Part shown: in pieces, positions 4,197-61,095 of the stretch | Position numbering within the stretch: the first letter of the stretch is position 1 | How the letters are laid out: the number at the start of each line of letters is the position of its first letter | Assembly (NCBI GenBank): GCA_016710075.1 | Contig: JADJLO010000034.1 | Location: 13,484-77,483, forward strand | DNA: 64,000 bases | Source: Acidobacteriota bacterium | GTDB taxonomy: Bacteria > Acidobacteriota > Blastocatellia > RBC074 | Direction of reading: 5' to 3' | Program-made: the position numbers and the translations under genes | The notes under the pieces: generated by a model | What the model saw: only the letters and a program-made list of their open reading frames with translations | What the model was told of the DNA's origin: nothing | Databases searched by the model: none

Positions 4197-4335
4197 TTAC
4201 GCACAGCATGGAGTTCCTGCATGGAGTTCCGCCTTCAGGCGGAACTTCTCGACAATAAAGGCTAACCGCCTAAAGGCGGTACTCCATGCGGTTCCGCCTG
4301 AAGGCGGAACTCCATGCGGAACTCCATGCCGACTT
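4197..4335. repeat. structured palindromic intergenic repeat, copy 1 (27-bp perfect inverted arms GCATGGAGTTCCGCCTTCAGGCGGAAC around a hairpin core)
   Basis: About 105 bp are ~98% identical to 6810-6915. Arms GCATGGAGTTCCGCCTTCAGGCGGAAC / GTTCCGCCTGAAGGCGGAACTCCATGC; inner hairpin ACCGCCTAAAGGCGGT. Confidence 0.8.
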
Positions 4336-5939
4336 TATTTAGGCGCGATGGCAGACTTGATGAACTCAGCCGTATCCTGCTTCAATTTCGCGTGAGCCGA
4401 GGGGCGGATATACATCATGTGGCCGCCCTCGTAGTAGCCGAATGAGACGCGATCGGTGATCTGGCGATCATAGGCGAGGTGCGTCAGGTTGAACTCGGCG
4501 CCGCCGGGAAGCGTCGCCATATCGTAATGCCCGCAGACGACGAACACTTTCAAAAACGGGTTCCTGGCCATGGTCTGACGCAAAGCTTCGGTCATGTCCA
4601 TGTAGCGGTTCTGGACGTAAATCCAGGGCGCAACATTTCCCGATGTAGGGTAGTGGAGATCCGACTCCCACTTGAGGGTGTTCCTGATGTAATCCCGAAA
4701 CATGGCCACGTAAGGCCCCGAAAGCGCAGTGTTCGACGGGTCGAACTCCTGACGCTCACCTGCGGCATCGGCATCGAGCGCCGTGAAGCGACTGTCAAGA
4801 CGGCCTACCGTCAGCCGCTGATCACGCAGCAGTTCCTTGCGAAACCGGCTGGAATCAACCCGAAGATTGGAGGCGAGAATGTATTTGGATGACAGACCAG
4901 TGTAGCGTGCCAGTTTTTCAGCCATCGCGCTGCGCTCGGCATCGGTCAAAGTGTTACCTTTGATCAGTGCCAGCATGTAATCGCCCAGTGCGAATGAGCG
5001 CGCCTCATCAACCACCTGCTTCAAGGATTTCTTCTGCATGTCGGCCGGGAGTTTCTTGTGATACCAGGCGGTCGCAGCAAAAGTCTGAATCTGGACGGCC
5101 CAGGCAATATCGTTATTCGGAGCGGGCGAGAGCGTCTGGTAGGTCAAGAGGGCCGAGAGCAGGACGATGCCGTTGAGCTCGATGCCGTGACGCGATTGCA
5201 GCTCCTGCGACAGTCCGGCAGATCGGATCGTGCCATAGCTTTCGCCAATCAGGAACTTGGGCGACGGCCAGCGGCTGTATGTGCTTAGATACTCCGCGAT
5301 AAATTCCCCGAACGAGCGGATGTCGCCGTCCTGCCCGTGAAACTGGGCATTGTCTATGCCGGGCATGACGCGGCTGTAGCCGGTGTCAATGGCGTCGATG
5401 TAAACCATATCAGAGACATCGATCAGCGAGCTTTCATTGTCGACCAGTTGGTAGGGCGGTGCAGGCTGAAAGCCTTCGGCGGCCATCTGTACTTTGCGAG
5501 GTGCGAAGGATCCCATGTGAAGCCAGACGGATGCAGAACCGGGACCGCCGTTGAAGAGAAACGACACGGGACGGGTCTTTGGATCTTCCCCGTCCTTCGT
5601 ATATGCGACGAAGAACATACGGGCGGCCACCTGGCCGTTGTCGAGTCGGATGGGCAAGGTGCCGGCAGTCGCGGTGTAGTTGATTTCACGGCCGCCCAAA
5701 CGAAGGACATGCGAGGACTGAGACACCCTGGCTTCATTGGGAGTGGCGACTTCGTACCGGGCCGGCACGGGAGTCTGCTGTCCCGGAGTTTGCGGCGCCG
5801 GGGTCTGTGGCGCCGGCGCTTGCGGCGCTTGAGGTCGCTGTGCTACTGCGACCTGAATTGACATCATGACCAGAACAGCCGCGAGTAGTGTCTGTTTTTT
5901 ATGTAAGATCTCCTGTGTTGAGAGTGTTGTGGGGAGCAA
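4335..5939 (-). CDS. secreted S10-family serine carboxypeptidase
   Basis: FNGGPGSAS and GESYG(T) active-site Ser motif. Signal peptide KKQTLLAAVLVMMSIQVAVAQ. No ATG upstream of the signal peptide; a TTG start near 5939 is a guess. Confidence 0.65.
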   Translation of the reverse strand: MLPTTLSTQEILHKKQTLLAAVLVMMSIQVAVAQRPQAPQAPAPQTPAPQTPGQQTPVPARYEVATPNEARVSQSSHVLRLGGREINYTATAGTLPIRLDNGQVAARMFFVAYTKDGEDPKTRPVSFLFNGGPGSASVWLHMGSFAPRKVQMAAEGFQPAPPYQLVDNESSLIDVSDMVYIDAIDTGYSRVMPGIDNAQFHGQDGDIRSFGEFIAEYLSTYSRWPSPKFLIGESYGTIRSAGLSQELQSRHGIELNGIVLLSALLTYQTLSPAPNNDIAWAVQIQTFAATAWYHKKLPADMQKKSLKQVVDEARSFALGDYMLALIKGNTLTDAERSAMAEKLARYTGLSSKYILASNLRVDSSRFRKELLRDQRLTVGRLDSRFTALDADAAGERQEFDPSNTALSGPYVAMFRDYIRNTLKWESDLHYPTSGNVAPWIYVQNRYMDMTEALRQTMARNPFLKVFVVCGHYDMATLPGGAEFNLTHLAYDRQITDRVSFGYYEGGHMMYIRPSAHAKLKQDTAEFIKSAIAPK

Positions 5940-6776: not shown

Positions 6777-6922
6777 TTCGGAGTACCTGCATGGAGTTCA
6801 TGGAGTACCTGCATGGAGTTCCGCCTTCAGGCGGAACGTCTCGGCAATAAAGGCTAACCGCCTAAAGGCGGTACTCCATGCGGTTCCGCCTGAAGGCGGA
6901 ACTCCATGCAGGTACTCCAAAC
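6777..6922. repeat. structured palindromic intergenic repeat, copy 2 (direct orientation relative to copy 1)
   Basis: Same 27-bp inverted arms and core as 4197-4335. The two copies bracket the divergent peptidase / secreted-protein gene pair. Confidence 0.8.
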
Positions 6923-7983: not shown

Positions 7984-8140
7984 GAAAGATTACGAAACAG
8001 ACGAAATAAACGAAACAAACGAAAAAATTGAAGGGGCGGATTAGCCGATTTTCTTTAATTGCCAGTCCATCCAAAATGATTCGAACAATACCACCTCAAA
8101 CTTTTTCGCCTGTTTCGTTCATTCCGTCTGTTTCGTAATC
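7984..8140. repeat. MITE/BIME-like element: inverted pair of GATTACGAAACAGACGAAA(TAAACGAAACAAACGAAA) repeats flanking ~70 bp
   Basis: Left arm GATTACGAAACAGACGAAATAAACGAAACAAACGAAAAA; right arm ...CTGTTTCGTTCATTCCGTCTGTTTCGTAATCC. Same family at 965-1125, 34102-34250, 39134-39228, 52040-52215 and a half-copy at 54900-54950. Confidence 0.7.
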
Positions 8141-13860: not shown

Positions 13861-14336
13861 GACTTCCTCCCGATCCCGATATCGAAGACATCAAGGACAG
13901 CGAGCATATTCAAGGCACCCGCTACACAGAGAAAGGTATTGCCATACTCGAAAGTCACCTTGGCCGCCTGTTCTGCCTGAAAATGAACGCCCCAGTCGAC
14001 GAGAAGGCAGACAAAATATGGCAGCCCGATTCCCGCATCGAGAAAGCTGAAGAACCATGTCAACCATTCGGTACTTTCGGGTTTGTAAAGATGGCCCTCC
14101 ATCAGAAATCCCAGGGCGAACATCGATATGATGACCAGTCCCGTGATCAACCCGCGAATCCATTTGCCGAGCAGGAAATGTCCCGCACCCGGAATAATCA
14201 ATGCCGCCACGCACGCAGAGCCCGTTCGGACGAACGATGCCGGTTTTGGCGAAATACTTATTTCATTTTGCAATTTATTATTTCTCTCCCCTTTTTGAGG
14301 ACTCGAATCAAAAGTTGATTCTAATTTTGGCATCAA
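13857..14336 (-). CDS. integral membrane protein, unknown function
   Basis: Four predicted TM helices; no recognised motif. Confidence 0.5.
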   Translation of the reverse strand: MMPKLESTFDSSPQKGERNNKLQNEISISPKPASFVRTGSACVAALIIPGAGHFLLGKWIRGLITGLVIISMFALGFLMEGHLYKPESTEWLTWFFSFLDAGIGLPYFVCLLVDWGVHFQAEQAAKVTFEYGNTFLCVAGALNMLAVLDVFDIGIGRKS

Positions 14337-14361
14337 GGGCTGTCAATGAAGAGTTCAAGTT

Positions 14362-15102
14362 TTAAGGTTTAAAGTTTGAACTGTCAGACAGAGTATCACT
14401 TTCCATTCTCAACTTTTCGAGAACGCCCTGAAACTTTGCCTGGATGGCCGGGTCGTCAGGGTCATCGACAGTGAATGGAGCCCCGATGACGACGAAGGCG
14501 CGTGAGAAGGGCTTCGGTATCTCGATCCTGTCCCAGCTTGGCAGCCGCCAGCAGTTCTCGAGTGAAATGGAAAAAGGAAGGATGGCGGCACCGGATTTCT
14601 TCGCGAGGAGCAGAGCGCCCGGTTTAGCCTGGTAGATGGGGCCGCGCGGTCCATCCACCGAAAAAGCTGCGCTGGTGCCGGATTTGACGGCGCGGATCAT
14701 TTGAATCAAGGCGGATCGCGCACCACGGGTCGAACTGCCCCTTGCCGCTCCGTAACCGAAACGCTGGATGAATCTGGCGATGTATTCCGAATCGAAGCTT
14801 TGAGAAGACATGACGATGATTCCGCGATCACGCCAGAAATATGTGGCGATCGGAATCCGGTTGTGCCAGAAACAATAGACCAGCGGTTGATTTTCAGAAT
14901 GGTTCTGATATCCGCTGATTTCGAATTTCAGGGTTGCGCCAATGACCCTGATAAGCCAGAACAGCCCCAATCCGGCGGCGCGGATAATGAGCCTTTGTTT
15001 GAAACTGTATTTATCGAGCGGGGCGAACGAATAGAGCTTTTTGAGCAGGGCGTCCAACCTCTCATCCCCCTCGACTGCCCCGTTTTTTTGAGTAAAGTCC
15101 AA
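14362..15102 (-). CDS. DUF374-family protein (lysophospholipid acyltransferase-like)
   Basis: LVYCFWHNRIPIATYFWRDRGIIVMSSQSFDSEYIARFIQRFGYGAARGSS is the characteristic DUF374 block. Confidence 0.65.
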   Translation of the reverse strand: MDFTQKNGAVEGDERLDALLKKLYSFAPLDKYSFKQRLIIRAAGLGLFWLIRVIGATLKFEISGYQNHSENQPLVYCFWHNRIPIATYFWRDRGIIVMSSQSFDSEYIARFIQRFGYGAARGSSTRGARSALIQMIRAVKSGTSAAFSVDGPRGPIYQAKPGALLLAKKSGAAILPFSISLENCWRLPSWDRIEIPKPFSRAFVVIGAPFTVDDPDDPAIQAKFQGVLEKLRMESDTLSDSSNFKP

Positions 15103-15430
15103 AGTCCAAAGTCAGGAGTTTAAAGTCTAAAGTTCAAAGTCTAAAGTCCGGATTTTAAAGTCCAAAGTCCAGGCGCAGGCGTCCCGGCTGCGTCAATTCG
15201 ATTAACGCAAGTCTGATATGAATGTGCGGATATTTCAATACAAGCAGGCGGGACGCCTGCGTACCCACTCGTATTTTTGGCGTTCTTGGCCCTCTTGGCG
15301 TTCCTGGCGATAAAATAATTTCTTAACCACAAAATCCGTTAGTTTCAGAAACTATAAACTTTAAACTTTGGACTTTAGACTTTGAACTTTAAACTTTGAA
15401 CTTTGAACTTTAAACTTGTATTCTCGATCT
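15095..15430. repeat. composite intergenic element: ~10 direct AAAGTYY heptamers - ~170-bp core with 19-bp inverted repeat (CGCAGGCGTCCCGGCTGCG / CGCAGGCGGGACGCCTGCG) - ~10 inverted heptamers (RAACTTT)
   Basis: Read directly: AAAGTCCAAAGTCCAAAGTCA...AAAGTCCAGG | core | AAACTATAAACTTTAAACTTTGGACTTT...AAACTTG. The core also holds the 30-mer TTAACCACAAAATCCGTTAGTTTCAGAAAC, which recurs in inverse at 61047-61076. Confidence 0.75.
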
Positions 15431-15458
15431 GAGGGTTGATCAACGGAGGAATAGAATT

Positions 15459-17501
15459 ATGAAATCACCTGAAGTTTCGCGTCTTCGATTGAGCATGGCA
15501 GCGGTTCTGGTGATGTTTTTTTCATTGATTGCAGTCATGCCGTTTGCCGCACAGCAGCCGCAGCCGCAGCCTGTGAAACCAGTTTCGCCAGTTGCGCCAA
15601 TCAAGCCGGTTCTGCCGGATGGGTCGATTTCCTCTGGAGAGAAGTTGATTCCGTTACCTGGAAGTTCTGCAGTGAAGCAGGGCAATCGCACAAGAAGGTC
15701 GGCGTCCGCACCGGTACAGCTCAATGAAGACCAAAAAATAATGCACCTGCTCAATCGTGCTGGATTTGGACCAAGGCCGGGAGATATCGACCGTGTTCGC
15801 AGAATGGGGATTGAAAGTTATCTGGAAGAGCAGCTTCACCCGGAAGATCAAGTCGATACATTCCTCAATAAACCGCTACTGGCGCTCAATACGCTGCAGA
15901 TGAGCGTGCCTGAAACGATACAGACATTTGCTCCGCCCCCGCAATCCCCTGCCCCCCCGCCACCCCCGCCACCCCAGGTGACACCGGCACCTTCGACGCC
16001 AACTGCGCCAAAGACTTTGCCGATTCCCGCGCTCGCCCAATCGATGCAGAAAGATGATCAGCCAAGAGAGGCGATGGCCGGGCAGGAGATGAACCGGCCG
16101 CAGCAGCAACCGCTGCCGCCGCAGCCTCAACCAGGCCAGACGAATCCGGCAAATCAGTCTCCGCAGCCGCGGCCGACGATGCCGCCGCGCGATCCGCAGA
16201 CGCCGCTTCGCGAGTTGCAGCAGGCAAAATTATTAAGATCGGTCTTCAGTGAAAAGCAGCTTCAGGAAGTGATGGTCGATTTCTGGATGAATCACTTCAA
16301 TGTATTTGCGGGCAAGGACAACGTTCGCTGGATGATCACTTCTTACGAAAGAGACGTGATCCGGCCGAGGGCGATGGGGCGGTTCAGAGACCTGCTGCTT
16401 GGCGTGGCTCAAAGCCCCGCGATGCTTTATTACCTCGATAACTTCCTGAGTCAGGCAGAGCCCAGGACGCCGCCACAGCCGGCAGCGCCCAGGCCTGCCG
16501 ATGCGGCAAATCAGGTGAATCCCGAGAATGCTCAGGCTTCCCAGCCGCCACCCCCGCCACCCCAGCCAAGGCGGCCGGGATTGAACGAAAATTACGCACG
16601 TGAACTGATGGAGCTGCACACGCTCGGCGTCGATGGAGGCTATTCGCAGCAGGATGTGCAGGAAGTGGCCCGCTGCTTTACAGGCTGGACGATCACGCCG
16701 CAGCCGAATACGGCATTCGTCTTCCGTCCGAGAGTGCATGATAAGGGCGAAAAAAATATCCTCGGCAAGCGCATTTCGGAAGGTGGCGGCATAGAAGACG
16801 GATTGAGAGTCATAGATATTCTTTCACGCCATCCATCGACGGCGAGATTCATCTCCTACAAGCTCTGCCAGCGCTTCGTTGCCGACGATCCTCCCGCCGC
16901 GCTGGTCACCAAAGTCATCGAAAAATTCGAGCAGACCGATGGCGATATCAGGGAGATGCTGAGAACCATTCTGACATCCCAGGAATTTTACTCTCCGAAA
17001 TTTTACCGGAACAAGATCAAGTCTCCGCTGGAGCTGGTGGCTTCGGCCCTGAGAGCCTCCGGGGCCTCGACAGACGGGGCTGCGCCGGTCTTTCAATGGA
17101 TTGGAAGGATGGGAGAGGCTCTTTACCTTTGTCAGCCGCCTACGGGTTATTCCGAAGAATCCTCCCGCTGGCTGAGCAACGCGACACTGCTCGAAAGAAT
17201 GAACTTTGCGCTTGCCCTGATGGGGAACAGGATCAACGGGACCCGCGTGGATCCGGGCAAGCTGACGTCTCTCGAATCGGAGTTGAAAGACGAGATGCTG
17301 CTCGATCAACTGATCGCGTCATTGTTGCACTCGGATGTATCGACGGAGACGCGCGATAAACTGCTGTCGGTCATGAGGGAGTCCCGGGCAGGCATGGCCC
17401 GGGCAAAATACGATGACCGTGCGATGAGGAAGAACAACGAACAGATCGTTGCCGCAATCAGTTCATTAATTTTCGGATCACGGGAATTTCAGACGAAATA
17501 A
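15459..17501 (+). CDS. DUF1800-family secreted protein with long Pro/Gln-rich insertion
   Basis: Signal peptide; ELHTLGVDGGYSQQDV signature of DUF1800; low-complexity PQPQP / PPPPPP tracts. Confidence 0.7.
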   Translation: MKSPEVSRLRLSMAAVLVMFFSLIAVMPFAAQQPQPQPVKPVSPVAPIKPVLPDGSISSGEKLIPLPGSSAVKQGNRTRRSASAPVQLNEDQKIMHLLNRAGFGPRPGDIDRVRRMGIESYLEEQLHPEDQVDTFLNKPLLALNTLQMSVPETIQTFAPPPQSPAPPPPPPPQVTPAPSTPTAPKTLPIPALAQSMQKDDQPREAMAGQEMNRPQQQPLPPQPQPGQTNPANQSPQPRPTMPPRDPQTPLRELQQAKLLRSVFSEKQLQEVMVDFWMNHFNVFAGKDNVRWMITSYERDVIRPRAMGRFRDLLLGVAQSPAMLYYLDNFLSQAEPRTPPQPAAPRPADAANQVNPENAQASQPPPPPPQPRRPGLNENYARELMELHTLGVDGGYSQQDVQEVARCFTGWTITPQPNTAFVFRPRVHDKGEKNILGKRISEGGGIEDGLRVIDILSRHPSTARFISYKLCQRFVADDPPAALVTKVIEKFEQTDGDIREMLRTILTSQEFYSPKFYRNKIKSPLELVASALRASGASTDGAAPVFQWIGRMGEALYLCQPPTGYSEESSRWLSNATLLERMNFALALMGNRINGTRVDPGKLTSLESELKDEMLLDQLIASLLHSDVSTETRDKLLSVMRESRAGMARAKYDDRAMRKNNEQIVAAISSLIFGSREFQTK

Positions 17502-25188: not shown

Positions 25189-25354
25189 AAAGCCGTGGGT
25201 TTCCTCTACTGGCGTATTTCAGATCTGCCCAAGCAGGATTCGATCTGTTAAGATGCTCGCGAGTTTCGACTCAGCGATCCAATAATCGTTAATGTGTGTA
25301 ACACAGCGTAAAAAGGGCTGTCAAGTTAAGCGTTTTAGAAGTATGGACGCGGAA

Positions 25355-25445
25355 AGGCTTTATGAGGTTAAAGTTCAAAGGTTAAAGTTCAGCGTAGAAA
25401 GCCGCCGGACACTTTAAACCTTGCACTTTACACTTTAAAATTTCG
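25355..25445. repeat. inverted TTAAAGTTCAAAG-type heptamer repeats around a short core
   Basis: GGTTAAAGTTCAAAGGTTAAAGTTCAG ... CACTTTAAACCTTGCACTTTACACTTTAAAA. Confidence 0.6.
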
Positions 25446-34101: not shown

Positions 34102-34250
34102 AAACAGATTACGAAACAGACGAAAATTCTCAAAGGAGGGGTTCGCGTAAATCAAATATTCCATCTTTCGGGAAAATTGAATGGTCTCGTACATTGACGG
34201 TCAGTATATTTTTCGTTTGTTTCGTTTATTTCGTCTGTTTCGTAATCTAT
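34102..34250. repeat. MITE/BIME-like element, GATTACGAAACAGACGAAA family (inverted pair around ~85 bp)
   Basis: GATTACGAAACAGACGAAAATTC ... TTTCGTTTGTTTCGTTTATTTCGTCTGTTTCGTAATC; lies between convergent genes. Confidence 0.7.
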
Positions 34251-36663: not shown

Positions 36664-37238
36664 ATGACCGACACCCTGCCTTCCAGAGAAGATTCCTGGA
36701 TGCTGCTTTGCGAGTGGACCGAAAGCGAGAGCCTGCGAAAACATGCGCGCGGTTGAGCACGCCATATGCGCCTTATGCGCGCAAATATGGCGAGGACGAG
36801 GAGAAGTGGGGACTGATCGGCCTGCTCCATGATTTCGATTATGAGCGATATCCCGATCAGCGCCATCCGCAGCTCGGATCTGAGGTGCTTCGGGAGAAGG
36901 GCTACCCAGAAGACATGATCCGTGCGATTCTTTCACACGCCGATTACACCGGAGTCAAACGCGAGACCCTCATGGAGCACACTCTGTTTGCCACTGACGA
37001 GCTTTGCGGCTTCCTTGTGGCCTGTGCCCTTGTCAGACCAGACAAGAGCTTCGATACGCTCGAGCCTTCATCGGTCAAAAAGCGGATCAAGGATAAAGCC
37101 TTCGCCAGAACCGTACATCGCGACGATTTGTGGAATGGCGCCAAAGAACTCGGCCTTGAATTCGACGAACATTGCTCTTTCGTCATCGCATCTTTGAGGG
37201 ATATACAGGAAGAAATAGGACTGAAGAAGGTAGTTTAA
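36664..37238 (+). CDS. HD-domain phosphohydrolase (~190-aa family), interrupted by two small indels at ~36735-36775
   Basis: GGAGG-ATG at 36664 opens MTDTLPSREDSWMLLCEWTESESLRKHA, then hits TGA. RAVEHAI is in frame +1. ...YARKYGEDEEKWGLIGLLHDFDYERYP...SHADYTG (HD motif) continues in frame +2 to 37238. Confidence 0.7.
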
Positions 37239-37354
37239 ACTTTGTACTTTAAACTCATTAGTCTGTGCCATAAAAAGCTCATTCTCTCCGTTGCGGAAAG
37301 GCCCTGTTAGTTAAAAGTTTGTAGCAGCGCTTTTCCCAAATCGCATCAAATTTG

Positions 37355-37512
37355 CGACCTCCATGGAGTGCGGCGACTTGTCGCCGCTTTGGTATTGTTC
37401 CAGAAATCCTGTTAAATCGGTGGGCGGTTTGCGGTGGATTAGATTTTTCCCAATATTTGAGTGGCCACAGGACTACCAGAGCGGCGACAGGTCGCCGCAC
37501 TCCATGGAGTCC
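37355..37512. repeat. pair of inverted palindromic units (CTCCATGGAGTGCGGCGACnnGTCGCCG) flanking ~90 bp
   Basis: CCATGGAGTGCGGCGACTTGTCGCCGC at 37362 and CGGCGACAGGTCGCCGCACTCCATGGAG at 37480. The CTCCATG / GTCGCC motifs relate it to the 4197 / 6777 element. Confidence 0.6.
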
Positions 37513-37628
37513 GCCTGTTTTCAATGATCCACGTATCATCGGTTCATGCTTTCAACTTTCCGCAACGGAGCTCATTCTTCTCGAACTTGACAGAGATGGC
37601 GCGGATCTGTAGTATGCGAATTTGCCGC

Positions 37629-37759: not shown

Positions 37760-37860
37760 GGGAAGTTTAAAGTTTAAAGTTTAAAGTTCAAGGTTTAAAG
37801 TTTAAAGTTCAAGGTTTAAAGTAGCAGGCTCAAGCGTCTCGCTTGCGCTCCAACTCGTTC
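37760..37860. repeat. tandem heptamer array (TTTAAAGT x ~8) followed by GCAGGCTCAAGCGTCTCGCTTGCGCTCCAACTCG hairpin unit
   Basis: GTTTAAAGTTTAAAGTTTAAAGTTCAAGGTTTAAAGTTTAAAGTTCAAGGTTTAAAGT then the hairpin-plus-...ACTCG unit also seen at 15240, 41878, 47882 and 58138. Confidence 0.7.
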
Positions 37861-39133: not shown

Positions 39134-39228
39134 AAAAGAGATTACGAAACAGAGATGAAAATGTTTATTCACTGATTAATCATTTTCGTCTGTTTCGTTT
39201 TTTTCGTCTGTTTCGTAATCTGTTTTGA
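39134..39228. repeat. MITE/BIME-like element, GATTACGAAACAGACGAAA family
   Basis: GATTACGAAACAGAGATGAAAATG ... TTTTCGTCTGTTTCGTTTTTTTCGTCTGTTTCGTAATCTG. Confidence 0.7.
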
Positions 39229-41805: not shown

Positions 41806-41920
41806 AGCGCAGGCGTCTCGCCTGCCGGAATTCAATACTCGAACCCTGGCCATCGAATAGGCTACGATTGAATTCAAGCAGGCGGGGCGCCTGCGGTCCC
41901 ACTCGCTTGTCACTGTTTGT
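41806..41920. repeat. hairpin-repeat element (GCGCAGGCGTCTCGCCTGC - 52 bp - CAGGCGGGGCGCCTGCGGTCCCACTCGCTTGTCACTGTTTGTC); left boundary of the Rhs/TA block
   Basis: The right arm plus tail (43 bp) is 100% identical to 47882-47924. Confidence 0.8.
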
Positions 41921-47874: not shown

Positions 47875-47925
47875 TTCCAGGCAGGCGGGGCGCCTGCGGT
47901 CCCACTCGCTTGTCACTGTTTGTCT
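47875..47925. repeat. half-copy of the 41806-41920 hairpin-repeat element; right boundary of the Rhs/TA block, abutting the tex stop
   Basis: CAGGCGGGGCGCCTGCGGTCCCACTCGCTTGTCACTGTTTGTC is identical to 41878-41920. The S8 fragment reading frame begins right after a TGA beside it. Confidence 0.8.
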
Positions 47926-50439: not shown

Positions 50440-50745
50440 AAATAAGTATTTTTGGATTGGGTTGGCCCCCCCTTTTTAAATAAAACAAACGGCGGAGGCG
50501 GGGGGGGGGGGGGCCCGGGGGGGGGGGGGGGGGGGGGGGGGGGACCCCGGGGAAACCGAGAAAAATAAAAAAAAAAACCCGAGGCCCCGGGGGGGGGAAA
50601 AAAAAAAATTGGGGGGCCAGTTTGGGGGCGCGTTCCGTGGGCGGGGCGGTTCCGGGGGCCGGGAAATACGGGTTGGGGGTCCCGGGGGGCCGCCCTCGGT
50701 TCTTCACCGGCGGGCCACCCGCGCTGGCTGTCAACAAAAGAAATC
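50440..50745. other. low-complexity poly-G / poly-C / poly-A tract, probable sequencing or assembly artefact
   Basis: Runs such as G14, then CCC, then G26..., A11, G9, with no coding potential other than Pro/Gly homopolymers. Confidence 0.6.
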
Positions 50746-52039: not shown

Positions 52040-52215
52040 AAGGAAAGAAGGAAAGAAAGATTACGAAACAGACGAAAAAGAACCAATGGGTGAAGCTTAC
52101 TTTATCGTTCTGAAGTATGTGTGACTGATAATTCTCAAACGATCATACATCTAAATTTTCGTCTGTTTCGTTTATTCCGTTTGTTTCGTAATCTATCCCC
52201 CCTGTTTCGTAATCT
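52040..52215. repeat. MITE/BIME-like element, GATTACGAAACAGACGAAA family (with duplicated right arm)
   Basis: GATTACGAAACAGACGAAAAAGAACC ... TTTTCGTCTGTTTCGTTTATTCCGTTTGTTTCGTAATCTATCCCCCCTGTTTCGTAATCTATCCCCC. Confidence 0.7.
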
Positions 52216-52226
52216 ATCCCCCTTCG

Positions 52227-57960: not shown

Positions 57961-58215
57961 GTACCGTAAATAATGAAAAAAACGGAACAAACGGAAGGAG
58001 GTGAAAGGAAGTATCTGGAGAGCAATCGGGAAAATAATTCGGCGAAATGGCCATACGAGCTGGGGCGCAGGCGTCTCGCCTGCGTATTATTTGTTATTGA
58101 GAAAATGTTGTTTCACGAGTTTGCATCTTACCACTCATCGCAGGCGAGACGCCTGGCGCCCCTCACTCGTATGGCCATTTCGGCAGTGAACTCTTTAAAC
58201 TTTGAACTGATTTCC
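57961..58215. repeat. long-inverted-repeat element (~40-bp arms GAAATGGCCATACGAG..GGGGCGCAGGCGTCTCGCCTGCG around a 57-bp centre) plus flanking heptamers
   Basis: Left CGGCGAAATGGCCATACGAGCTGGGGCGCAGGCGTCTCGCCTGCG; right CGCAGGCGAGACGCCTGGCGCCCCTCACTCGTATGGCCATTTCGGC; then CTTTAAACTTTGAACT. Confidence 0.7.
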
Positions 58216-61024: not shown

Positions 61025-61095
61025 AAGAATAAATTCAAAGTTTAAGGTTTCTGAAACTAACGGATTTTGCGGTTAAAGTTTAAACTCCCGGGAAA

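Follow-up and report, generated by a model that had tools for sequence, protein, structure and literature searches.

Tandem arrays of a 7-bp unit, AAAGTYY (TTTRAAC on the complementary strand), were analysed in a 64-kb stretch of an Acidobacteriota genome of the class Blastocatellia (GCA_016710075.1, contig JADJLO010000034.1), hereafter the window. The arrays were found to constitute a dispersed, mostly intergenic family, the longest members of which face each other between a DUF374 and a DUF1800 gene and differ by whole units between genomes of one species. They probably represent a lineage-specific heptanucleotide family of simple sequence repeats (SSRs) of the short tandemly repeated repetitive (STRR) or long-SSR kind, which grows and shrinks by slippage in the intergenic regions of a Blastocatellia bacterium. 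The window arrays extend a repeat class known from cyanobacteria and Xanthomonas to a new phylum, with a new unit and an unusually long facing pair.

Heptamer arrays and their variation between strains

Arrays were detected with Tandem Repeats Finder (TRF) in the 64-kb window, and their significance was determined from motif counts in comparison with shuffled sequence. Tandem head-to-tail 7-bp units were found at seven sites. The dimer pattern AAAGTNNRRAGT had 19 matches in the window with 0.30 expected, a number reached by none of 100 shuffles, and runs of at least three units were observed 7 times in the window and not once in 50 shuffles. All seven sites share one unit family: the AAAGT core is invariant among them and unit positions 6-7 are unconstrained. 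No other intergenic heptamer family was detected by TRF in the window, the lone further period-7 match being a 2.3-copy CATCGAT repeat inside a gene. A sequence-only reading of this stretch had described tandem 7-bp units at seven sites and proposed a second, distinct family of dispersed intergenic repeats. Both statements are supported by the TRF results and the shuffles, with the addition that the arrays at three sites (14353-14381, 58193-58207 and 61035-61085) are remnants, each with no more than 2-4 degenerate units.

The main pair is located between the divergent DUF374 (14362-15102, minus strand) and DUF1800 (15459-17501, plus strand) genes, which were assigned from open reading frames (ORFs) and Pfam. 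The left arm (15094-15171, plus strand) consists of 11 tandem AAAGTYY units (11.1 copies by TRF, consensus AAAGTCC) containing a 35-bp higher-order repeat, and it adjoins the 5' end of DUF374, with which it overlaps in the window. The right arm (15349-15417, plus strand) is its inverted counterpart with about 10 tandem RRACTTT (TTTRAAC) units (9.9 copies by TRF, AAACTTT). The two arms are separated by a core of 177 bp (15172-15348). The palindrome between the arms extends over 67 nt per arm with 79% complementarity and a spacing of 182 nt, and the single-strand fold of the facing-pair region resulted in -121.7 kcal/mol (z = -9.4). The earlier description of about ten direct copies facing about ten inverted ones was accurate for this site. 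Its generalization to giant palindromes around hairpin cores in seven regions was not: facing pairs occur at two of the seven sites only (15094-15417 and 25365-25437), the other five sites are single arrays, and a hairpin core is present at one site.

The region was compared with four syntenic loci of the same species, L001, L130 (GCA_963852515.1), L131 (GCA_016717465.1) and L132 (GCA_016702945.1), which are 96.5-98.3% identical to the window at the nucleotide level over about 21.5 kb. Facing arrays occupy the equivalent intergenic region in all five genomes. The left arm has 11 units in the window, 14 in L001, 15 in both L130 and L131, and 20 in L132. The right-arm lengths of the window, L001, L130, L131 and L132 were determined to be 65, 30, 58, 58 and 37 bp, corresponding to 9, 4, 8, 8 and 5 whole units, respectively, and all these differences are multiples of 7. 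The arms vary independently of each other, with for instance 14 vs 4 units in L001 and 20 vs 5 units in L132. The variation of the right arm is restricted to the promoter-distal units; the three units proximal to DUF1800 together with TTGTATTCT were kept in five of five genomes, with one spacer base differing in L132. Whole-unit copy-number polymorphism between close relatives was thus found in the right arm, in the left arm and, as a 28-bp deletion in the short contig L123, at a further site described below. The short arrays of 3-5 units, at 14353 upstream of the DUF6677 gene and at 25365/25409 upstream of aroA, displayed point changes only between the same-species genomes. The stability of the short arrays and the variability of the long ones fit slippage that rises with array length.

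A 44-bp deletion at the left-arm edge (window 15085-15105) has removed the DUF374 ATG used by L001, L130, L131 and L132. An in-frame TTG at 15102, within the heptamer array, restores a DUF374 ORF of identical length, 246 aa; the TTG-started ORF of the window could equally reflect a pseudogene or an assembly error. The proteins encoded around the arrays assign the window to the class Blastocatellia of the Acidobacteriota. The members of the protein clusters of the window neighbours originate from 'Acidobacteria bacterium' metagenome-assembled genomes (MAGs) and wastewater assemblies, and an exact look-up of the AroA and P0242 proteins of the window returned no record.

The core and the 30-mer

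The core between the arms is unconserved, as three unrelated versions were found in the five same-species genomes. The core of L001 is 43 bp long and has no GC hairpin, that of L132 consists of a GC-rich double hairpin followed by unrelated sequence, and the cores of the window, L130 and L131 combine the hairpin element with a 9-bp repeat and a 30-mer. In the window, the double hairpin element (15174-15261) contains GCAGGCGNGACGCCTGC twice in inverted orientation. The inverted repeat that had been noticed inside the core is real, its arms (15174-15198 and 15237-15261) being 25 nt long and 84% complementary. The element belongs to a separate repeat family, which is represented in full also at 41809-41894 and 58043-58182 and by halves at 37831-37846 and 47881-47897. 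The GCAGGCGNGACGCCTGC double hairpins, often followed by CCCACTCGT, resemble repetitive extragenic palindromic (REP) sequences or MITEs (miniature inverted-repeat transposable elements), with 15 matches vs 2.75 expected. The "hairpin" of the core is an independent GC-rich element inserted between the arms. The 9-bp tandem repeat TTGGCGTTC (15277-15309, plus strand) is present in 3.7 copies and occurs also in L130 and L131, not in L132 and L001.

The 30-mer TTAACCACAAAATCCGTTAGTTTCAGAAAC (15323-15352, plus strand) runs directly into the right arm. This copy is exact. The inverted recurrence noted earlier was confirmed with one mismatch at 61047-61076 on the minus strand, where it precedes the permease ATG (61024) by 23-52 nt. 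The latter copy is located within an operon, in the 71-bp spacer between sbp and cysT (61025-61095, minus strand), where it is flanked by degenerate heptamer units (array part 61035-61085). It is present in five of five full-length same-species sequences, and in the short contig L123 half of it was lost by the 28-bp (4 x 7) deletion in the spacer. The copy upstream of DUF1800 was found in the window, L130 and L131 only. In more distant Blastocatellia (L125-L129; 87-88% protein identity) there is no spacer, and the sbp stop codon overlaps the cysT start. This marks the spacer with its heptamers as a lineage-specific insertion and not a conserved operator.

The distribution of the two copies indicates that the 30-mer is native to the sbp-cysT spacer, which holds the primary copy, and was secondarily copied upstream of DUF1800. 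Since both copies are embedded in heptamer units, recent copying between arrays is the simplest reading. The 30-mer had been suggested as a possible regulatory site shared upstream of two genes. With only two copies in the window, one of them intra-operonic and the other absent from L001 and L132, it is, as far as its distribution tells, not a promoter site common to both genes. A metagenome scan with the 30-mer core gave no match; the control flank, which is conserved in L001, was also unmatched, so the collection is without this lineage and the scan is uninformative.

Related arrays and known heptamer repeats

A scan with four AAAGTNN units, including one genome per species, yielded at least 120 loci in Acidobacteriota, Bacteroidota, Cyanobacteria, Patescibacteria, Chloroflexota, Verrucomicrobiota and others. 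In the loci listed, TRF detected at least 349 period-7 arrays and at least 47 neighbouring inverted pairs of like unit, at least 38 of which were non-redundant. Among the matches listed, the pairs were located between same-direction genes in 30 cases, between divergent genes in 8 and between convergent genes in 3, and the Acidobacteriota pairs fill entire spacers, from the stop codon of one gene to within a few nt of the following start. Facing pairs with units specific to their locus occur in other Acidobacteriota, L050 having three pairs with three units, and in many phyla, and relatives among the Blastocatellia carry facing arrays of 8- and 9-bp units as well. A fixed polarity was determined for loci L001-L122: in 34 of 38 pairs among the matches listed, an A-rich arm is 5' and a T-rich arm 3' (p = 6e-7; 21 of 21 for the AAAGT type). 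Arrays immediately following stop codons were, among the matches listed, A-rich in the sense strand with ratios of 39:20 for unpaired and 12:2 for paired arrays.

The S13-S11-S4-rpoA-L17 operon region of an Acidobacteriota MAG (L095, 3238-6219) has foldback pairs of heptamer arrays, no two with one unit, in four of its five spacers and a single array in the fifth. Most L095 pairs fold at z values of -7 to -11 and the weakest at -3.3; the pair at 5686-5744 pairs through G-U wobbles alone on the sense strand. Right after the stop codon of the Endonuc_Holl orthologue, three foldbacks were found in three lineages (L125, 11571-11728; L128, 18564-18585; window, 52055-52218), consisting of GTTGCCR heptamers in two lineages and of a 9-bp family in the window species.

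Arrays of heptamer repeats have been on record since 1990, with no accepted function. Cyanobacterial STRR sequences were reportedly described by Mazel and co-workers in 1990, and Vioque is said to have found in 1997 that STRRs extend helix P12 of the RNase P RNA. Strictly defined, STRRs belong to heterocystous cyanobacteria, and the arrays of the window, with an Acidobacteriota (Blastocatellia) host and the unit AAAGTYY, are outside this definition. The cyanobacterial STRRs are likewise tandem heptanucleotides, with about 100 copies per genome, which are intergenic, hairpin-forming and without established function. They form intergenic hairpins, for instance between hupS and hupL and upstream of hoxW, and closely related strains carry different arrays (PMC2670836). 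Their units (CCCCAGT, TTGGTCA, CAACAGT) and lineage differ from those studied here. Heptamers from Nostoc influence recF and recO reporters (bioRxiv 10.1101/2022.06.06.494920).

Among long bacterial SSRs, heptamers form the most abundant class and lie mainly in intergenic DNA (Mrazek 2007, summarised in PMC4679880). The GGGAATC repeats of Xanthomonas (Rehm et al. 2015, PMC4692102) number about 185 arrays per genome, mostly of four units, with 70-75 convergent inverted pairs. Like the window arrays, they are heptamer SSRs scattered through intergenic DNA and belong to a single unit family in which some positions are conserved and others free, typically with about four units and some long arrays; their convergent pairs could form stem-loops or cruciforms, and their length varies by species and differs between related genomes, whereas the pair or single type is kept. 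In contrast, the unit of the window is A+T-rich without G-quadruplex potential, the phylum is Acidobacteriota, and the main pair is much longer (11 + 10 units) and located between divergent starts, a rare context in Xanthomonas (7-8%).

In Beggiatoaceae, Cyanobacteria and Bacteroidetes, TAACTGA repeats adjoin start codons and vary by steps of 7 nt (MacGregor 2015, PMC4679880). They end a few nt before starts without a Shine-Dalgarno sequence, occur in ribosomal protein operons and have strain indels in 7-nt steps; similarly, in the window species the aroA, cysT and ancestral DUF374 starts are located 6-15 nt after an array. Unlike the facing pairs with up to 20 copies in the window species, TAACTGA repeats are almost all direct, in one orientation to the gene and in 2-6 copies. 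The (ATCTTTC)n repeat of hmw1A in Haemophilus influenzae is a proven expression rheostat acting via a hairpin (PMC12721329). It is also a heptamer SSR of variable copy number upstream of a gene, and with more than 10 repeats it is one arm of a long hairpin. It differs in being a single locus of a host-adapted pathogen that is transcribed, cut by RNase III and expression-setting. The position of the window arrays would be compatible with contingency of the hmw1A type, and their copy number varies. REP sequences and bacterial interspersed mosaic elements (BIMEs) are similarly intergenic and palindromic, and the GC-rich double hairpin of the core resembles them, but the arrays themselves are tandem, A+T-rich and variable in unit number instead of being fixed palindromic units of about 35 bp. 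The Acidobacteriota arrays broaden the phenomenon beyond cyanobacteria, Xanthomonas and Beggiatoaceae.

Promoter context and competing explanations

Promoters were predicted as sigma-70 type with a scanner threshold of 9/12. The putative DUF1800 promoter TTGAAC-N17-TATTCT (15396-15424, plus strand) was read by eye below this threshold. Its -35 box is located in the third-last unit of the right arm, within the stretch kept in the five genomes, and the units upstream of it vary. The degenerate array of about 4 units at 14353-14381 (minus strand) overlaps the final DUF374 codons, stop included, and lies 6 bp upstream of the -35 box of a predicted near-consensus promoter, TTGACA-N17-TAGAAT (14346..14318; 11/12 match). 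The small facing pair is situated in the divergent region between anti-sigma/STAS and aroA, with its left arm at 25365-25391 (plus strand, TRF) and its right arm at 25409-25443 (plus strand; 25409-25437 by TRF). The right arm contains the promoter-like TTTAAA-N17-TAAAAT (25413-25441; 9/12 by the scanner), which ends 9 nt before the aroA ATG. The 3-unit array at 37233-37254 (plus strand) was about 35-45 bp upstream of the predicted tRNA-Leu promoter before a MITE-like element inserted between them. The unpaired array of 8.6 units at 37763-37822 (plus strand) contains a 21-bp higher-order repeat and lies between the tRNA-Leu terminator and a major facilitator superfamily (MFS) gene, followed by a GC-rich half hairpin. 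The two units at 58193-58207 (plus strand) are 3' of the D-Ala-D-Ala dipeptidase gene and were kept in L133-L135. As read from the unit itself, four TTTAAAC units automatically yield TTTAAA-N17-TAAACT.

These predictions make promoter-related tuning of the flanking genes by the arrays plausible. The strains provide a natural allele series for tests of expression tuning, with 4, 5, 8 and 9 units by the conserved putative DUF1800 promoter and 11-20 units before the divergent gene. Two candidate regularities were dropped. The 12-mer TTGACAGCCCTT, a -35 box with 6 nt, was considered as a motif common to array-adjacent promoters; it has two copies only (14335-14346 and 25313-25324, minus strand), each just downstream of a heptamer array, and its significance is marginal, since two matches were reached by 4 of 100 shuffles. 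An orientation rule, TTTRAAC on the coding strand upstream of a gene, holds at 6 of 7 sites and was rejected as a general rule because facing pairs satisfy it automatically, the unpaired arrays of the window split 3:2, and arrays before starts across phyla split 15:14 among the matches listed.

The arrays are proposed to expand and contract by slipped-strand mispairing in entire 7-bp units, by which long arrays would be hypervariable and short ones stable. The "giant palindrome" would be the usual facing-pair layout of such repeats, with an A-rich arm 5' and a T-rich arm 3' on either strand, and the likeness of the arms may be kept by copying across the hairpin or by recombination. The GC-rich hairpin element, the 9-bp repeat and the copy from the sbp-cysT spacer would have been inserted or recombined between the arms later. 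If the arrays act at all, they may do so as promoter-upstream or leader DNA of variable length, tuning the flanking genes in the manner of the hmw1A repeat; alternatively, they may simply be tolerated. Several points weigh against slippage as the full account. The left-arm lengths of 78, 120, 122 and 158 bp differ by non-multiples of 7, which is attributed to other superimposed indels. Local slippage alone explains neither the single unit family across seven arrays in 64 kb nor the appearance of units in a spacer absent from relatives, so some dispersal or selection must be added. Finally, the species sequence examined amounts to about 70 kb.

Selection of the A+T-rich units as promoter-upstream (UP-element-like) or promoter-forming DNA, on or just upstream of -35 boxes, seems rather unlikely, although much of the promoter context is in line with it: the 11/12 promoter next to 14353-14381, the position of 25365-25391 about 40 bp upstream of the second TTGACAGCCCTT, the promoter-like sequences within 25409-25443 and the right arm, the latter kept in five genomes, the former neighbourhood of 37233-37254 and the tRNA-Leu promoter, and the sense strand reading ACTTT in 5 of 5 promoter-linked cases. 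These promoters are, however, predictions, and the two inside arrays are weak (8-9/12). The spacer at 61025-61095 lies within an operon, 58193-58207 is located 3' of a gene, 37763-37822 has the opposite orientation, and units of the GGACTTT type contain no -10-like hexamer. In other genomes, G+C-rich facing pairs fill intra-operon spacers, and arrays before starts have no strand preference. The sequence-only reading had favoured sites for a sequence-specific or nucleoid-associated protein recognising TTTAAAG, and the single unit family with its core invariant at all seven sites, the palindromic TTTAAA and the intergenic position would suit such sites. Iterons and similar binding arrays are characterized by a fixed, strain-conserved number and spacing and usually by helical phase; here the number changes freely between near-identical genomes (4-9 and 11-20 units at 96.5-98.3% identity), the 7-bp spacing turns successive sites to different helix faces, positions 6-7 are free, related genomes use many different, locus-specific units in a like architecture, and the arrays have no linked gene for a candidate protein. 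Sites for one protein are therefore very unlikely, and the arrays should not be annotated as regulator sites, nor the 30-mer as a shared operator.

It is similarly improbable that the arrays are terminal inverted repeats of a foldback-type mobile element (MITE) inserting into intergenic DNA. The inverted arms, the family at several loci, the insertion of the sbp-cysT spacer relative to distant Blastocatellia, and the true MITE-like elements and foldbacks with 9-bp-repeat arms in the window point in this direction, but neither target-site duplications nor defined termini were found at 15094/15417, five of seven sites are single arrays, unit order and number differ between copies, and the arms change length independently. 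Elsewhere the units are locus-specific, in favour of growth in place. As to presence or absence at orthologous sites, the pair as a whole is present in all five same-species genomes and the sbp-cysT spacer is lacking in the more distant Blastocatellia. The least credit is given to selection for an RNA hairpin in the transcript, be it a bidirectional terminator, a stabiliser or an RNase III site, which we regard as highly improbable. The very strong folding potential, the intra-operon spacers filled by pairs elsewhere, the polarity, which is that of intrinsic terminators, and the hairpin precedents (PMC2670836, PMC12721329) could be cited for it. Both window pairs, however, are located between divergent starts, where the predicted promoters would put the arms on separate transcripts or leave them untranscribed, and the arms are unbalanced in relatives. 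The terminator scanner marked only the GC hairpin of the core; A+T-rich arms at a site flanked by two gene starts do not correspond to an intrinsic terminator, which has a G+C-rich stem with a T run and follows a gene end. The Rfam matches in the window were two tRNAs only, with a best score of 17.7 bits vs the gathering score of 50 in 14300-15470. Selection at the RNA level was also rejected because, for pairs between same-direction genes, the sense strand folds no better than the antisense strand (12 vs 10 among the matches listed), with no G-U signature, the L095 pair with G-U pairing alone being unrepresentative.

A wider proposal goes beyond slippage within one lineage. Facing arrays of 7-9-bp units might form a class of intergenic palindromes that spans phyla, expands by itself and keeps a fixed polarity. 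They would be seeded at post-stop hairpins and able to wedge new spacers between formerly overlapping genes and to donate signals to neighbours, in this species -35/-10-like hexamers and even the replacement TTG start of DUF374. This is considered unlikely; were it true, a dedicated mechanism or selective role would await discovery. The origin of the repeats is hinted at, in a small but concrete way, by the polarity rule and by a spacer newly created where relatives have overlapping genes.

Other repeats were also observed in the window. The MITE-like insertion at 37286-37570, between the heptamer array and the tRNA-Leu promoter, has a perfect 15-nt terminal inverted repeat, CTCCGTTGCGGAAAG, and an 8-bp flanking duplication, CTCATTCT; inside it lies an inverted repeat of 41 nt with GCGGCGAC..GTCGCCGC hairpins. 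A 9-bp tandem family (TTTCGTYTG, about 3.7 copies) was found at 1082-1114, 7992-8024, 34106-34248, 39134-39226 and 52055-52218; three of these sites are foldback pairs with 20-23-nt inverted ends, and the window and L134 differ in copy number. At 50497-50552, in intergenic or short-ORF sequence, about 44 G broken by a few C form a run that may be a genuine homopolymer tract or may have arisen as an artefact of sequencing or assembly. A further repeat family with GGAACTCCATGC / CCGCCTAAAGGCGG hairpins is present at 4206-4329 and 6780-6920.

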